Shown: positions 20,320 to 51,752 of the stretch, in pieces
How positions within the stretch are numbered: position 1 is the stretch's first letter
How the letters are laid out: every line of letters begins with the position of its first letter
Source: Minisyncoccia bacterium
GTDB taxonomy: Bacteria > Patescibacteriota > Minisyncoccia > Phycocordibacterales > UBA5272
Direction: 5' to 3'
DNA length: 64,000 nt
NCBI GenBank assembly: GCA_038326985.1
Contig: JBBQKQ010000002.1
Span: 2,978-66,977, forward strand
Translations under genes and position numbers: made by a program
The notes under the pieces: generated by a model
Told to the model about the DNA's origin: nothing
Database searches by the model: none
The model's input: only the letters and a program-made list of their open reading frames with translations

Positions 20320-20404
20320 GCCCGGGTGGCGAAATTGGCAGACGCACTAGCCTTAGGAGCTAGCGAGGCAACTCATGAAGGTTCAAGTCCTTTCCCGGGC
20401 ACCA
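20320..20404 (+). tRNA. tRNA-Leu (anticodon TAG), type II with long variable arm and encoded CCA
   Basis: Hand-folded cloverleaf: acceptor GCCCGGG/CCCGGGC, D stem GCG/CGC, anticodon stem CTAGC/GCTAG, loop CTTAGGA, 13 nt variable arm, T loop TTCAAGT, 3' ACCA. Confidence 0.8.
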
Positions 20405-20660
20405 AAATGGAACTTAAAATTTTTGAAGAAGCAGAAATGCGGGACGCGCGAAGCGCCTCCCAATGGTTTCCGCCTAGATTTCCCCCAGAATCCGCAGAAG
20501 AATCTGCCAAAAATAAATCCGAATTTGGCGCGCAAGCGTGTGGAGTTTTTTCGCCGAGGAGGAGGTGCGAGCCAAAGATTTCTTCGGCACAGACCTTTTT
20601 AGAAAAAAGGTCTGAATCAGAAGCGATTTTGTCCAAGGATTGAGAGTCTTTTAGCCAGTT
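20405..20660. other. GC-rich (~50%) noncoding-looking segment between tRNA-Leu and the IS remnant. Function unknown.
   Basis: Composition strongly deviates from the ~30% GC surroundings. Local hairpins include GCGCGAAGCGC and CAGACCTTTTTagAAAAAAGGTCTG. The overlapping ORFs on both strands look spurious. Confidence 0.3.
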
Positions 20661-27760: not shown

Positions 27761-30475
27761 ATGCCACCATTTAACTTATTTTCCATGACTGCACAACGGT
27801 CAATTCAGAAAGCTCACGAAATAGCTGGTGAGCGTGGTATAAGCCACGTTTCTTCTATGCATTTATTGCTATCGCTTTTTACTTTGGAAGATGATGTGCT
27901 CTTAACAATTTTTGAAAAAATGGAGCTTAACCAATTAGACATTATAGACAGTTTGTTGGAAAAACTCGAAGACAGAAACGTGGGTGATCAGATGTCGACT
28001 AGTTACGTGCAACAGATGTTTTTAACCCCTGACATGGCCGAGACACTAGACCGCGCAATGCATGTAGCAAAAGAAATGAATGATAAAACAATTGAGCCTG
28101 AGCACTTATTTTTAGCACTTTTAAGTATTGATAAAGAAGCAGCCAAGTTTTTATTGCCGTACAATATTAACTTTGATAATTTCAAAAAAATAGTTTTAGA
28201 AGTGCATCAAGAAAATCTTGATGAACAAGAGTTAGAAAATATTGAGGGAGAGGAGTCAGAAAATAAAAGCAATCCAAAAGCTAGAGCGGTAGAAAAATTT
28301 ACTCGCAATTTAACTAAAGAAGCAAAACAAGATAAAATAGACCCTGTTATTGGGCGAGATAAAGAGACGATGCGCCTAATGCAAATTTTATCTCGTAGAA
28401 CTAAAAACAATCCTATAATTATTGGTGAACCCGGAACAGGAAAAACCGCAGTAGCAGAAGGACTAGCACTCAGAATAGCAAAAGGTGACGTTCCCGAGTC
28501 TTTAAAAGGTAAAGAACTAGTTTCGCTTGATTTAGGACTTTTAATTGCAGGTACAAAGTATAGAGGAGAATTTGAAGAGAGATTAAAAAATATAATGAAA
28601 GAAATAGAGAAATCTAAAGGTAAGATTATTCTCTTTATTGATGAAATACATACTATAATTGGAGCAGGAAACCGTGAAGGTGAGAGTGATGTAGCAAACA
28701 TGCTTAAACCAGCCCTTTCACGAGGAGAAATACGTGTTATAGGTGCAACTACAATAAATGAGTATCAAAAACACATTGAAAAAGATGCTGCTTTAACCCG
28801 CCGTTTTCAGCCAATATTTGTAGAAGAACCTTCTGAGGTTGACACGATTGCAATATTGCGTGGAATAAAAGAAAAGTACGAGCTTTTTCATGGAGTCAGA
28901 ATAACCGATGATGCCATTATTGCTTCTGTTGAATTATCAACAAAATATATTTCCAATAGATTTTTGCCGGACAAAGCCATTGATCTTATTGATGAAGCAG
29001 CCTCAACTCTCAGGATGACTTTGGAAAATAAACCAATTGTTTTAGATGAGGCACACAGAAAAATAATGAAGCTCGAGATTGAAAAAAAATCTTTAGTTGA
29101 AGGTGATGCAAAAATTAAAATCATCGCGGCACAAATAGCAAAAATTAAAAAAGAAATAGCCCCCACAGAAAAAAAGTGGAAAGCTGAAAAAGATTTGTTA
29201 TCTGAAATACAGAGAATAAAGACGGAGCTCGACACGATGAGGGTTGAAAGTGAGCAAGCGGAATCAATGGGTGATTTAACAAAAATTGCCGAAATACGCT
29301 ATGGAAAAATACCCGAGCTTAAAAGTGAAATGCAAGTAAAAATAACCGAGCTTGCACTTTTACAGAAAAAAGGAAGTCGTGTATTAAAAGAAGAAATAAA
29401 TAGGGAGGACATTGGTAGAGTTGTAGCTCAATGGACAGGAATACCAGTGCTTAGAATGCTAGAAGACGAAGCTCAAAAGCTAGAACATATGGAAGAGTTT
29501 TTACACGCGAGAGTTGTAGGACAAGAAGAAGCTGTTAGTAAAGTTGCACATGCAATAAGAAGAAGTAGAGTGGGAATTGGTGACCCAAACCGACCAATTG
29601 GTTCTTTCATATTTTTAGGACCTACTGGAGTAGGAAAAACCGAACTTACAAAAGCCTTGGCGGAATTTATGTTCAATGATGAAAAGGCACTGGTCCGAAT
29701 TGATATGAGTGAATACATGGAAAAACACAGTGTTTCTAAACTGGTAGGAGCTCCACCAGGATACGTAGGATATGATGAGGCAGGTCAATTAACAGAAGCT
29801 ATTCGCCATAGACCATACTCGGTAATACTTTTTGACGAAGTGGAAAAAGCTCACCCAGAAGTTTTCAATATTCTTCTTCAAGTTTTGGATGAGGGAAAAC
29901 TTAAAGACTCAAAAGGTCGATATGTAAACTTTAAAAATTGTATTATAGTACTCACTTCTAACTTGGGTTCTCAGTTTATAAATAAGATGGAAAGTTTTGG
30001 TTTTAACGAAAAACCAACATCAGATTATTCCAACATGAAAGAAAAAGTATTAACTAGTTTGAAAGATTTCTTTAGACCAGAATTCTTAAACAGGCTTGAT
30101 GAAATAGTTGTCTTTGATGTGCTTTCAAAAGAAATGATAAAAGATATTGTAAAAATTCAATTAAATATTTTAGTGGACAGATTAAAAACAAAGAATGTGA
30201 ATTTAAGTTTTACTGAAGCCTCAGTTGATAAAATTTCTGAACTTGGATTTGACCCTCATTATGGAGCACGACCCGTTAAGAGGATTATTCAAACTGAAGT
30301 TTTAAACCCCATTGCACTGACCTTAGTAAAATATGTAAATAAATTTGAGAAAAATGTATTACTAGATGTTAAAAAGGACAAGGGAATACTCAAATCTGAG
30401 AATAAATTAGAAATTTCTTTTAAAGGACTCACAAAAGGAATCTCACTTAAAAAAGTCAATATTGCAAAAAAATAA
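27761..30475 (+). CDS. clpB: ATP-dependent chaperone ClpB: two AAA+ modules plus a long middle coiled-coil
   Basis: Clp_N repeats, Walker A motifs GEPGTGKTA and GPTGVGKTE, a ~120 aa coiled-coil M-domain, and the sensor-2 GARPVKR. Confidence 0.85.
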
Positions 30476-30495
30476 AAATAGAATACAATAATAAA

Positions 30496-30652
30496 TAGGG
30501 CTATCTGTAAAAAACTTTACTAAAATTTTTACAGGAGGCTTTATATAGATTCACCTGCCGCGCTTTCAAAAGAAATTTTGTTCGTACGAATATGGAAATT
30601 CTTGCGGTCTCCGCCCTTAAGTTAATCCTTAAGGTTTAAGCAGATAGCCCTA
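30496..30652. repeat. ~157 bp element bounded by 12 bp inverted repeats TAGGGCTATCTG / CAGATAGCCCTA. MITE-like or a structured RNA.
   Basis: Perfect 12 bp terminal inverted repeats. The interior has hairpins CTGTAAAAA/TTTTTACAG, palindromic TTCGTACGAA and CCTTAAG..CTTAAGG. It is GC-richer than the flanks and has no ORF. Confidence 0.3.
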
Positions 30653-30681
30653 AACAAAAAATGAAAACAACAATGAAGCAC

Positions 30682-31020
30682 TTGCTTCGTTTTTTGTTTG
30701 GGTGTAGAATTTTAGATGACCGACAAAACGGTCAGCGTTCAAAGGAAAAAAAAGATGGCAAAAAGCAAACGAGGAGCCGTAAAGGCATCCCGGAGGAGGA
30801 GGTGCCTTAGTGGTAATCCTGATTTGGTGGGGCAACATCACCAACTGCAAACAACCACGTTAGGTGGGGACTCGAGAGAGACTCCAAAAAGATATGACTA
30901 TGGGGGACGAACCTTTGTGTTTCCGGAAAGCACTTGGGAGTTGAATGATCTCAACTTCTAAGCTCAGTCTTCTTTGGGAAACGTTTGTGGGGCGCTGCAA
31001 AGCAGCGCCCCTTTTACTTT
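30682..31020 (+). other. Mini transcription unit 1: TTGCTT-N17-TAGAAT promoter, SD plus a 68 aa basic ORF (30755-30961), and a GC hairpin terminator (30988-31020). Possibly an sRNA.
   Basis: Promoter box TTTGGGTGTAGAAT shared with unit 2. AGGA Shine-Dalgarno 10 nt before the ATG. Terminator GGGGCGCTGCAAAGCAGCGCCCC + TTTTACTTTTT. About 45% GC in a ~30% GC genome. Confidence 0.35.
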
Positions 31021-31055
31021 TTAATTATCTTAAAAAATATATTTGAAAAAGACAT

Positions 31056-31336
31056 TTGCTTTGTTTAAAGTTTGGGTGTAGAATTTAAAAGCTGTCAACC
31101 TGTAAAAGAAGGAAAAATCATGACTAAAAAGAAACCTTCAGGTGCACATGGCGCAAAAGGGGCAAAGCTTAGACGTGCAGAAAGATGGCTGCGTCAGAAC
31201 TTTGCGAAGTTCTTTTTCAGAACTCCGCGGATGACTCAAGAAACACCTTCGGTGATCTTGCATCAAGCGACAGGTTAATCCCGTAGAGCCAAAAAGAGGT
31301 AGGGGCGTCACAAATCGACGCCCCTTTTACTTTTTA
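31056..31336 (+). other. Mini transcription unit 2, paralogous to unit 1: TTGCTT-N17-TAGAAT promoter, SD plus a 52 aa basic ORF (31120-31278), and a GC hairpin terminator (31302-31336)
   Basis: Same promoter box AGTTTGGGTGTAGAAT and the same terminator tail GCCCCTTTTACTTTTTAA as unit 1. The ORF starts MTKKKPSGAHGAKGAKLRRAERW. Confidence 0.35.
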
Positions 31337-31361
31337 AAATTTTTATTGTATTATATATTTT

Positions 31362-32684
31362 ATGATACTGAAAGATTTAGATAAATTTAAGCTTCCGGAC
31401 GAAAGTGGAGTTTATTTTTTTATGGGACCCCCCCTAACCCCCCCTTATACAGGGGGGGAAGAGAACATCCTTTACATTGGTAAAGCTACAAGTTTAAAAA
31501 GTAGAGTTAAAAGTTATTTTGATAATAATATTTTACATACCCGTGGTCTTCACATTGCAAACATGGTGAGCTTGGCCAAAAGTATTAAATTTGAAACTAC
31601 AAGAAGTGTTTTAGAAGCACTTCTGCTTGAGCAAGAGCTAATAAAAAAACATAAACCAAAATTCAACAGCGAAGCAAAAGATGATAAAAGTTTTTTTGTT
31701 TTGGTGATAACAAAAGAAGATTTTCCTAGAGTACTACTAGTAAGAAACAAAGATATAGACAAAGAAAATAACCTAGTTTTAAAAAGTAAATTACTTGGTA
31801 AGAAAGTAGAAAATAAAAAAGAAATTGTAAAAGTTGAAAAAACTTTCGGACCGTATTCAAGTGGGCAAAGTGCAAAAGATGCTTTAAAGCTTATTCGTAA
31901 AATTTTTCCATTTCGAGATAAATGTGATCTTTATGACAAGAAAAAATCTTGGCAAAAAAAAGCCTGTTTTTCATATTCTATAGGTCTGTGTCTAGGAACG
32001 TGTGCTGGAGTAATTTCTAAAACGAAATACCAAAACCATATTGAAAGACTAATAACTTTTTTAGAAGGGGATGGGGAAAAGGTGCGAAAAGATTTAGAAA
32101 AAGATATGCAAACTGCCAGTGACAAATTAGAATTTGAAGAAGCGCAAAGAATAAAAGAAATACTTTTTGCGCTCGAGCATATTCGAGATTCTCATCTTAT
32201 AAATCGTGATATAAAAGAAGAAAATAAAAGCACTCGTATAGAGGCTTTCGATATCGCACACATGTCTGGTCAAAACAGAGTCGGGGTAATGGTGGTTGTA
32301 CAAGGTGGAGTCCCTAATAAAAGCCAATACAAAAAGTTTAAAATCTCGAAAGATGAAAACGACGACTTAGAAGGATTAAAAGAGCTTTTTTTAAGAAGAA
32401 TAAAACACTTGGAATGGGGAATACCAGATGTAGTTATTGTTGACGGTGATGAAAGACATATAAATGTTGCAGAAAAAATTTTAATTGAAAACAACCTAGA
32501 TAAAACAGTAAAAGTTGTAGCAGTAACAAAAAACCGCCAACACAAAGCACAAAAAATAACAGGTGATAAAAAAATTGTGGAAGAGTTTCAAAGAGAAATA
32601 ACTTTAGCAAACAGCGAAGCCCATAGATTTGCAATAACTTATCATAAAAATTTACGCAAAAAAAGTTTTATACCTAAAAACTGA
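31362..32684 (+). CDS. uvrC: UvrC-like excinuclease, short 440 aa form: GIY-YIG, Cys-rich, UVR and RNase H-like start, but lacking the C-terminal Endo V-like and HhH2 domains
   Basis: GIY-YIG motifs GVYFFM...ILYIGKATSLKSRVKSYF. Cys cluster CDLYD..CFSYSIGLCLGTCAG. UVR motif EFEEAQRIKEILFALEHI. IEAFDIAHMSGQ motif. The ORF ends where the canonical C-terminal domains would follow. Carries in-frame repeat copy g inside the GIY-YIG motif. Confidence 0.6.
   Translation: MILKDLDKFKLPDESGVYFFMGPPLTPPYTGGEENILYIGKATSLKSRVKSYFDNNILHTRGLHIANMVSLAKSIKFETTRSVLEALLLEQELIKKHKPKFNSEAKDDKSFFVLVITKEDFPRVLLVRNKDIDKENNLVLKSKLLGKKVENKKEIVKVEKTFGPYSSGQSAKDALKLIRKIFPFRDKCDLYDKKKSWQKKACFSYSIGLCLGTCAGVISKTKYQNHIERLITFLEGDGEKVRKDLEKDMQTASDKLEFEEAQRIKEILFALEHIRDSHLINRDIKEENKSTRIEAFDIAHMSGQNRVGVMVVVQGGVPNKSQYKKFKISKDENDDLEGLKELFLRRIKHLEWGIPDVVIVDGDERHINVAEKILIENNLDKTVKVVAVTKNRQHKAQKITGDKKIVEEFQREITLANSEAHRFAITYHKNLRKKSFIPKN
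31426..31466 (+). repeat. Palindromic repeat subfamily-2 copy g, in-frame in the uvrC-like GIY-YIG motif
   Basis: GACCCCCCCCTAACCCCCCCTTATACAGGGGGGGAAGAGAAC, translated as GPPLTPPYTGGEEN, between GVYFFM and ILYIGKA. Confidence 0.8.
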
Positions 32685-51550: not shown

Positions 51551-51593
51551 TACCTACTTGCAATTATTTTAAATAATGTTATTATTGTAATTG

Positions 51594-51720
51594 CTGGGTG
51601 GGGGTCCCCCCCGATGACCCACCTAGCGCATGCTGCTGCATCGCCCTACGCAGCAGCAGAGTGGTCCGAACTCCTGGAAGATTAGAGCTATTAAGCTCTC
51701 ATCCAGGGGTTCGGCCATTT
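51594..51720 (+). ncRNA. Candidate structured small RNA or complex terminator: ~125 nt, ~60% GC, three hairpins, ending in a terminator-like stem plus T-tract
   Basis: H1: GGTGGG...CCCACC around a C7 run. H2: TGCTGCTGC-atcgccctac-GCAGCAGCA (9 bp). H3: a 14 bp interrupted stem GGtCCGAACTCCTGG...CCAGGGGTTCGGCC enclosing AGAGCT-atta-AGCTCT, followed by ATTTCTCTTTGCATTTTT. It lies between the stop at 51550 and the rpoB promoter. Confidence 0.3.
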
Positions 51721-51724
51721 CTCT

Positions 51725-51752
51725 TTGCATTTTTAGAATTTTGTGTTATAAT
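51725..51752 (+). promoter_or_regulatory. rpoB promoter: TTGCAT, 16 nt spacer, TGtTATAAT
   Basis: TTGCAT 51725-30 and an extended -10 TGTTATAAT ending at 51752, with an ~85 nt leader to the rpoB ATG. Confidence 0.45.

Follow-up and report, generated by a model that had tools for sequence, protein, structure and literature searches.

Sibling small RNAs (sRNAs) of the OmrA/OmrB type are encoded as tandem copies, each with its own promoter and terminator, in which the 5′ and 3′ ends are conserved and the middle has diverged. Other short transcripts, such as SgrS/SgrT, RNAIII/hld and SR1/SR1P, have dual functions as sRNAs and as mRNAs for small proteins. Among genes for small basic proteins, rpsU (bS21) of the Flavobacteriales is a lone gene with a strong Shine-Dalgarno sequence (SD) in an SD-blind lineage, and it is autoregulated via anti-SD availability (PMC9976891, PMC7797042, PMC13000453). 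Here we describe two GC-rich mini transcription units upstream of uvrC in a 64,000-nucleotide stretch (the window) from the genome of an uncultivated, ultra-small Minisyncoccia bacterium (assembly GCA_038326985.1, contig JBBQKQ010000002.1), and compare them with the corresponding slot in related genomes. The initial annotation had offered two options for the pair, duplicated genes for small basic proteins (ribosomal-protein-like or toxin-like) or sRNAs with incidental open reading frames (ORFs), of which the first is the better supported. On balance we favor, with moderate confidence, the view that each unit is a monocistronic gene for a small polycationic protein. The earlier interpretation was broadly correct but too simple, and three features had been overlooked: a conserved structured sRNA next to the units (here termed RNA-A), the exceptional status of an SD in this genome, and coding analogues in the same slot of relatives.

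Direct reading of the sequence revealed two plus-strand units of ~300 bp (Table 1), each with the promoter box, SD, small basic ORF and terminator previously described for it. The units have a GC content of 0.48–0.49 versus 0.33 for the window, a contrast that had been put at ~45% versus ~30%. Both terminators are called by a terminator scan, whereas the promoters, which agree with the consensus at only 8 of 12 positions, are for that reason missing from the list of a consensus scan. Even so, the recurrent −10 box of the clade is TAGAAT, which reappears as the −10 box of RNA-A in relatives. In the centroid folds of both units, the SD and the start codon are unpaired. An in-frame ATG at 30716, 5 nt past the −10 box of unit 1, would give an 81-aa version of its ORF and is a possible leaderless start.

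The pairing of the units is a real feature and not a product of chance. Across the window, the 15-mer promoter box GTTTGGGTGTAGAAT and the 19-mer terminator tail CGCCCCTTTTACTTTTTAA are each found at exactly two places; for the latter, 0.03 matches with ≤3 mismatches are expected and none of 100 shuffles reached two. A repeat finder delimited a 5′ family of 34 nt at 85% identity and a 3′ family of 36 nt at 83%. The similarity includes the leader and the first ~7 codons (the first ~45 transcribed nt), whose local alignment score was reached by only 3 of 500 shuffles. The 160–210-nt bodies, in contrast, do not align, whether globally or locally, their local alignment score being reached by 326 of 500 shuffles, and the protein-level z-score between the two units is −0.3. 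The promoter, leader, first codons and terminator are thus paralogous, as the initial annotation had claimed for the units as a whole, whereas the ORF bodies are unrelated: a single expression cassette has been employed twice, each time with a different, unrelated insert. The own promoter and terminator signals and the repeats also support the earlier description of independently transcribed, duplicated modules. In addition, two base pairs of the terminator stem have undergone compensatory double changes between the two units (one from C-G to U-A, the other from U-A to C-G), and therefore both hairpins have been maintained since the duplication.

Table 1. Coordinates of the two units, their neighbors, and RNA-A in related loci.
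Feature	Position	Strand	Details
clpB	27761–30475		
RNA-A	30462–30697	+	conserved structured sRNA, not part of the units; mature about 30498–30653 (~156 nt); promoter TTGCAA 30462 / TACAAT 30484; terminator 30672–30697
Unit 1	30682–31024	+	
Unit 1 promoter	30682–30710	+	−35 TTGCTT 30682–30687, spacer 17 nt, −10 TAGAAT 30705–30710
Unit 1 5′ region	30716–30754	+	5′ hairpin 30717–30734; SD AAGGA 30742–30746
Unit 1 ORF	30755–30961	+	68 aa, isoelectric point (pI) 10.0, GC at codon positions 1/2/3 = 0.50/0.50/0.49
Unit 1 intrinsic terminator and tail	30989–31024	+	GC stem 10 bp, loop AAA, hairpin 30989–31011, tail TTTTACTTTTTAA
Unit 2	31056–31337	+	
Unit 2 promoter	31056–31084	+	−35 TTGCTT 31056–31061, spacer 17 nt, −10 TAGAAT 31079–31084
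Unit 2 SD	31108–31113	+	GAAGGA, ATG 6 nt further on
Unit 2 ORF	31120–31278	+	52 aa, pI 12.0, net charge +10, GC at codon positions 1/2/3 = 0.50/0.52/0.40
Unit 2 intrinsic terminator and tail	31301–31337	+	hairpin 31301–31325, tail TTTTACTTTTTAA
uvrC	31362–32684		
RNA-A in L001	4243–4399		
RNA-A in L002	4061–4204		
RNA-A in L013	2004–2156		
RNA-A in L014	1879–2033		
RNA-A in L015	1924–2046		
RNA-A in L016	1980–2125		
RNA-A in L019	1854–2008		
RNA-A in L020	1985–2125		

UvrC places the window in the Patescibacteria (candidate phyla radiation, CPR), with the nearest genome (L001) at 80% UvrC identity and about 30 further relatives at 60–69%; a metagenome scan with UvrC yielded two distant loci only. 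The loci examined were those of 12 relatives (L001, L002 and L013–L022) with 63–80% UvrC identity. The order clpB – RNA-A – slot – uvrC is kept in 10 of the 12. In 11, the stretch immediately upstream of uvrC contains a single GC-rich mini unit or two of them; that of L017 has no clpB or RNA-A nearby, and L018 has no unit. In each of the relatives’ units, an SD-like motif accompanies a small ORF of 33–66 aa with a pI of 9.6–12 and an N-terminus that is often rich in Lys, and most have a visible hairpin terminator. These units lie nearly always on the minus strand, converging on the RNA-A terminator, so that the window units are inverted relative to almost all of them; in L002 both orientations occur, with one unit each. 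The tail TTTTACTTTTTAA is also present in the units of L001 and L015, which ties the window cassette to the lineage of those two.

Evidence that units in this slot can be coding comes from the relatives. The ORFs designated L001m and L015m share 60% identity over 47 aa (tblastn, E 3e-16), and their segment RIPLPPK is unchanged across seven consecutive synonymous codon changes. Differences at codon positions 1/2/3 number 19/15/34 for this pair, 5/11/18 for L014mA/L019mA and 20/15/30 for L014mB/L019mB, with 18, 11 and 16 synonymous-only codon changes, respectively. The summed differences (44/41/82) have a third-position excess with a chi-square, by our own computation, of about 19 (2 degrees of freedom). 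Substitution dominated by the third codon position means that the ORFs of these three orthologous pairs are translated, and they are under purifying selection at the protein level. Other members of the class are unrelated or only weakly linked, with a loose K-T-F-K-x-G-K-x-A-K-R-R motif in L014, L019, L020 and L017 (pairwise z 3–5), and slot proteins lack conservation even among relatives with 66–80% UvrC identity. In L014 (2131–2442) and L019 (2106–2422), both on the minus strand, the slot holds two tandem small basic ORFs that each have a KTFK-x-(G/R)K motif. These tandem ORFs are paralogue-like, and so tandem duplication of mini-genes has recurred. Conservation in relatives, to which the initial annotation had looked, was found for the slot, the class traits and the presence of coding analogues, and not for the window peptides, for which tblastn against the loci of the 12 relatives gave no homologue.

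Two traits set the small ORFs apart from ordinary genes of the lineage. The first is the GC content at third codon positions (GC3), which is 0.40–0.73 in all 16 small ORFs as opposed to 0.15–0.30 in every ordinary gene of the window, rpoB and rpoC included. Diverged orthologues both keep a high GC3, which is thus maintained and is not a trace of recent transfer. The second is the SD: an SD core precedes all 10 small ORFs that were found without an SD criterion, versus 4 of 87 ordinary starts (3 of 51 in the window, scored for a 4-mer core between −20 and −4, and 1 of 36 in relatives, rplQ, rplM and rpsI among the latter). Units 1 and 2 have the sole intergenic SD-preceded ORF starts in the window. 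Both combine the slot position, an own promoter and terminator, an SD core, a Lys-rich N-terminus, a pI above 9.5 and a GC3 of at least 0.40. The available evidence suggests that ordinary genes of the lineage mostly have leaderless or very short-leader mRNAs; many ordinary gene starts lie 7–12 nt past a TATAAT-like box.

The high GC3 would be explained if the units were dual-function RNAs, that is, if they were mRNAs translated into small proteins and, in addition, selection acted on their GC-rich bodies as RNA, for stability or a regulatory structure. Its persistence at 0.40–0.73 in diverged orthologues of genomes with 32–37% GC implies selection at synonymous sites, the minimum free energy (MFE) per nt is about 1.5–2 times that of ordinary genes, and the coding sequences (CDSs) of two relatives’ ORFs, L002p and L019mB, have fold z-scores of −3.7 and −5.3. 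However, CDS fold z-scores are mostly unremarkable, the synonymous sites of L001m and L015m alternate freely between G/C and A/T endings, and the bodies are alignable only within close pairs. We regard a dual function as quite improbable.

The window’s own peptides share the general character of the class. Both have a net charge of +7 to +8 in their first 20 residues (+8 for unit 1), and both are hydrophilic, with grand averages of hydropathicity of −1.02 and −0.85 and maxima of −0.09 and −0.16 in 15-aa Kyte-Doolittle windows. Single-sequence AlphaFold2 models are of low confidence, with one beta-hairpin for unit 1 (predicted local distance difference test score, pLDDT, 62) and one helix at residues 12–32 for unit 2 (pLDDT 69), and they were left out of fold searches. 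When codon usage in the small ORFs of the relatives is taken as the scoring table, the annotated frame comes out best in both window units, as it does, with leave-one-out, in all 12 relatives tested.

Database searches are consistent with the initial annotation’s remark that the pair cannot be annotated by homology. No match was found for either window peptide in Pfam, NCBIfam, PHROGs or PADLOC, and a phmmer search of PDB sequences returned noise only. Rfam gave no match at gathering score in the window, the best sub-threshold matches in 30450–31400 being terminator-driven noise of ≤29 bits. A protein homologue search returned nothing for the unit 1 peptide and only self-matches for that of unit 2; phmmer with the unit 1 peptide against 1.84 billion representatives gave one spurious match only. 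Pairwise z-scores are ≤2.2 for every pair containing a window unit, and, apart from the terminator tail shared with L001 and L015, comparison with the relatives’ units detected neither nucleotide similarity nor protein similarity in any frame. Little weight attaches to the silence of the databases, since members of the class are seldom predicted by gene callers: only 1 of the 10 small ORFs looked up is present in a collection of 15 billion proteins, which records the unit 2 peptide as a 52-aa protein (P0001, NCBI source). The only other contig with this UvrC, L010, is identical to the window and therefore holds no variation. The Logan gene call over unit 1 (L010 411–548, equal to window 30673–30810) is a 45-aa ORF in another frame, and the one for unit 2 takes as its start a TTG that precedes the predicted −10 box.

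Several observations weigh against the view that the window units are protein genes. Neither peptide has a detectable homologue, so the coding status of the two ORFs rests on analogy and not on homology to another member of the slot class or on purifying selection on the ORF itself. The openness of the ORFs in sequence of 50% GC (p = 0.04 and 0.13 for units 1 and 2, respectively) is weak evidence. In the unit 1 ORF, GC is flat across codon positions, and its codon adaptation index is 0.47 versus 0.71 ± 0.06 in ordinary genes. If the ribosomes of this lineage ignore the SD, as in Bacteroidia, its presence is weaker evidence of translation. Six of the relatives’ ORFs (L017m, L019mA, L019mB, L020m, L021m and L022m) had been found by a scan that required an SD, and were excluded from the SD association. 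Finally, conserved ends around a divergent center are also the pattern of sibling sRNAs. By analogy with the relatives’ ORFs, we nevertheless infer that the window’s two ORFs are themselves translated.

The main rival explanation builds on several of those points. It holds that the units are sibling non-coding sRNAs of about 240–310 nt, with a 5′ seed retained as in OmrA/OmrB, and that their ORFs are by-products of stop-codon-poor GC-rich sequence. Both units have the corresponding layout, being arranged in tandem with the 5′ 45 nt and the terminator conserved and the center unalignable; they are GC-rich islands within an AT-rich genome, and their whole-unit fold z-scores are −4.9 (unit 1) and −3.1 (unit 2). 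The flat codon-position GC and low codon adaptation index of unit 1, the not very improbable openness of the ORFs, the skipping of the unit 1 ORF by gene callers and an SD that ordinary genes do not use here all fit with it. However, when only the CDSs are folded, the z-scores shrink to −1.5 and −1.9, values that ordinary coding controls also reach, which means that the terminator and the 5′ hairpin are the source of the signal seen for whole units. There is also no Rfam match, and the sRNA option of the initial annotation is weakened on both counts. In addition, the conserved 5′ segment does not look like an anti-SD-like seed but is made up of an SD and, after a spacer, an ATG followed by Lys codons; protein-level selection acts on analogous units of the slot; and the class codon table fits the annotated frame best. 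We consider sibling sRNAs unlikely, and retain small basic-protein genes as the preferred explanation.

A different possibility is that the region is non-functional or transient, either a remnant of the inversion and duplication of an ancestral L001m-type cassette or recent GC-rich foreign DNA, with ORFs that are neither conserved nor useful. Consistent with this are the inverted orientation relative to almost all relatives, the absence from the window of the L001m/L015m-type ORF expected by descent, the orphan ORFs with their foreign-looking codon usage, and a 21-nt inverted repeat that brackets the region. Yet both copies retain an intact promoter, SD, ATG, frame open up to the terminator, and terminator, and the compensatory stem changes indicate hairpins maintained since the duplication. 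Moreover, the same class traits are found in every relative, and searches with phage DNA and protein and a viral-contig scan produced no phage match (plasmid collections were not searched). We judge this explanation to be very improbable. As for the inverted repeat itself, its arms (30474–30494 and 31340–31360, 86% complementary) lie in the −10 region of RNA-A and in the stretch just upstream of uvrC, thereby enclosing RNA-A and both units; it may have been left by the inversion that distinguishes the cassette from those of other genomes, or be a chance product of AT-rich sequence.

Other candidates were rejected. A structured non-coding RNA (RNase P, transfer-messenger RNA (tmRNA), signal recognition particle RNA or 6S RNA) has no covariance-model match and the CDS folds are ordinary; a tRNA/tmRNA scan of the window found only three tRNAs, all outside the units. 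The toxin-like option of the initial annotation was not borne out: no PADLOC match was obtained, and type I toxins are peptides of ≤60 aa with a hydrophobic transmembrane segment, whereas neither peptide has a hydrophobic segment. A precursor of a ribosomally synthesized and post-translationally modified peptide or of a bacteriocin is not indicated, as no modification or export genes adjoin the units, which are flanked by clpB and uvrC. Nor is there a reverse transcriptase, IscB or TnpB nearby, as would befit a retron, a diversity-generating retroelement or an omega-RNA. A leader peptide or attenuator of uvrC was dismissed since each unit has a full terminator and the relatives’ unit is on the opposite strand, and a frameshifted descendant of an L001m-type gene since there is no similarity at the nucleotide level or, in any frame, at the protein level.

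Under the explanation that we prefer, each unit would be transcribed independently from its TTGCTT-N17-TAGAAT promoter into an mRNA that has a short A-rich leader with the SD, then the ATG, and that ends at the intrinsic terminator. The products would be strongly basic and mostly disordered proteins of 52–68 aa. The two units would have arisen by tandem duplication of one expression cassette, their ORF bodies now being unrelated. They occupy a conserved slot (clpB – RNA-A – slot – uvrC) that in relatives is filled by one or two small protein genes with fast turnover. Judging by charge only, the products may bind nucleic acid or the ribosome. A more far-reaching idea, which we hold to be unlikely, is that the clade keeps one slot where new, unrelated polycationic micro-protein ORFs are time and again placed into a fixed cassette of promoter, SD leader, Lys-rich start and terminator, through de novo birth or replacement of the body. 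These would be the sole SD-dependent genes, translated for instance only by ribosomes with a free anti-SD, and their products possibly associated with the ribosome or RNA-A.

The units had been described as lying downstream of clpB. This is correct in that clpB is upstream, although not directly, as RNA-A intervenes between clpB and unit 1. RNA-A has its own promoter and terminator, and the −35 box of unit 1 sits within the 3′ arm of the RNA-A terminator stem. It is kept in 10 relatives with 66–80% UvrC identity (eight are listed in Table 1). Its proposed structure of 32 pairs in five helices is 95.8% paired, with compensatory change at nine pairs, and none of 500 shuffles matched it. No Rfam family was found for it, either at gathering score on the whole window and six loci or in E-value mode on 30450–31400. 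RNA-A may be a new RNA class in Patescibacteria, and literature searches returned nothing describing either it or units of this kind.

On the other side of the slot, uvrC has no SD, and ~25 nt separate the unit 2 tail from its ATG (31326–31364). A −35-like TTTACT is located within that tail and a TATTAT ends 8 nt ahead of the uvrC ATG; in relatives a TGnTAtAaT is found 6–7 nt ahead of it. Possibly, the TTTACT belongs to the uvrC promoter, and uvrC may be leaderless. Within uvrC, positions 31424–31462 (codons ~21–35) read C7-TAA-C7-TTATACA-G7 and encode GPPLTPPYTGGE; the part of the GIY-YIG domain that contains them is of different length in different relatives. These homopolymer tracts could be prone to slippage or form a hairpin.

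Two other GC-rich elements were observed on the plus strand of the window. The first (51592–51728), upstream of rpoB (51838), is ~137 nt long and has three strong hairpins (MFE −76.8 kcal/mol, z −7.2); it has no Rfam match at E ≤ 1 and could be an sRNA or an rpoB leader. The second (20405–20640), right after tRNA-Leu (20320–20404), is a ~240-nt stretch with a GC content of about 0.47 in a 1-kb gene-free interval. It ends in the hairpin cagaccttttt...aaaaaggtctg, has ORFs on both strands that look incidental, and has no Rfam match.

If the slot ORFs encode real proteins, they make up a class that is missed by standard pipelines, as seen from the single entry among the 10 looked up, because its codon usage is opposite to that of the host genome. 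Such a class would be a blind spot of CPR gene inventories. It unites GC-rich synonymous sites maintained by selection in an AT-rich genome, SD-led initiation in an otherwise SD-free lineage, and rapid turnover of ORFs inside conserved signals at a fixed locus. These traits bear on translation initiation in minimal symbiotic bacteria and on the origin of new small genes. If the units are sRNAs instead, few sibling sRNAs, if any, would have been proposed in Patescibacteria before them.

Comparison with known systems reveals partial likenesses to each. The slot proteins resemble small basic ribosomal proteins (bS21, bL32–bL36 and bTHX) in being about 40–70 aa long, with a very high pI and N-termini rich in Lys/Arg, and in the monocistronic layout and strong expression signals of their genes. 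However, ribosomal proteins are conserved between relatives and slot proteins are not, and neither window peptide has the family match or the sequence conservation of that group. Pfam and NCBIfam at E ≤ 10 identified no ribosomal family for the window peptides or for eight relatives’ peptides, and tblastn with Escherichia coli bS21 and bL32–36 gave no match at E ≤ 0.1, so that the ribosomal-protein-like option is not supported.

The likeness to OmrA/OmrB lies in the conserved ends, divergent middle and own promoter and terminator. The window units differ in being longer, at 240–310 nt, than those sRNAs. They differ also in that their conserved 5′ part is an SD-ATG-Lys-codon module, that the ORF fills the transcript, and that the analogues in relatives are under protein-level selection. 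As in SgrS/SgrT, RNAIII/hld and SR1/SR1P, the units are short, structured, capped by a terminator and carry a small ORF, but there is neither homology to those systems nor a base-pairing function in evidence.

The rpsU gene offers the closest functional analogy for the SD exception, though as a lead and not as a finding. In the window and its relatives, as there, genes for small basic proteins have a clear SD where ordinary genes lack one, and the units thus pair a strong SD with a presumed gene for a small basic protein in an otherwise SD-less genome. The products are not bS21, however, and the units therefore fall outside the rpsU system, in which the anti-SD is sequestered by bS21, bS18 and bS6; several unrelated, fast-changing proteins take the place of one conserved protein. 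The window carries no 16S rRNA. To suppose rpsU-like autoregulation of the units would be pure speculation. More generally, it is speculative that dependence on the SD gives the units a special translational regime like that of rpsU in Bacteroidia. The window units are best classed as orphans within a lineage-specific and so far unannotated group of genes for small basic proteins, which are GC-rich, led by an SD and located in a conserved slot with fast turnover.

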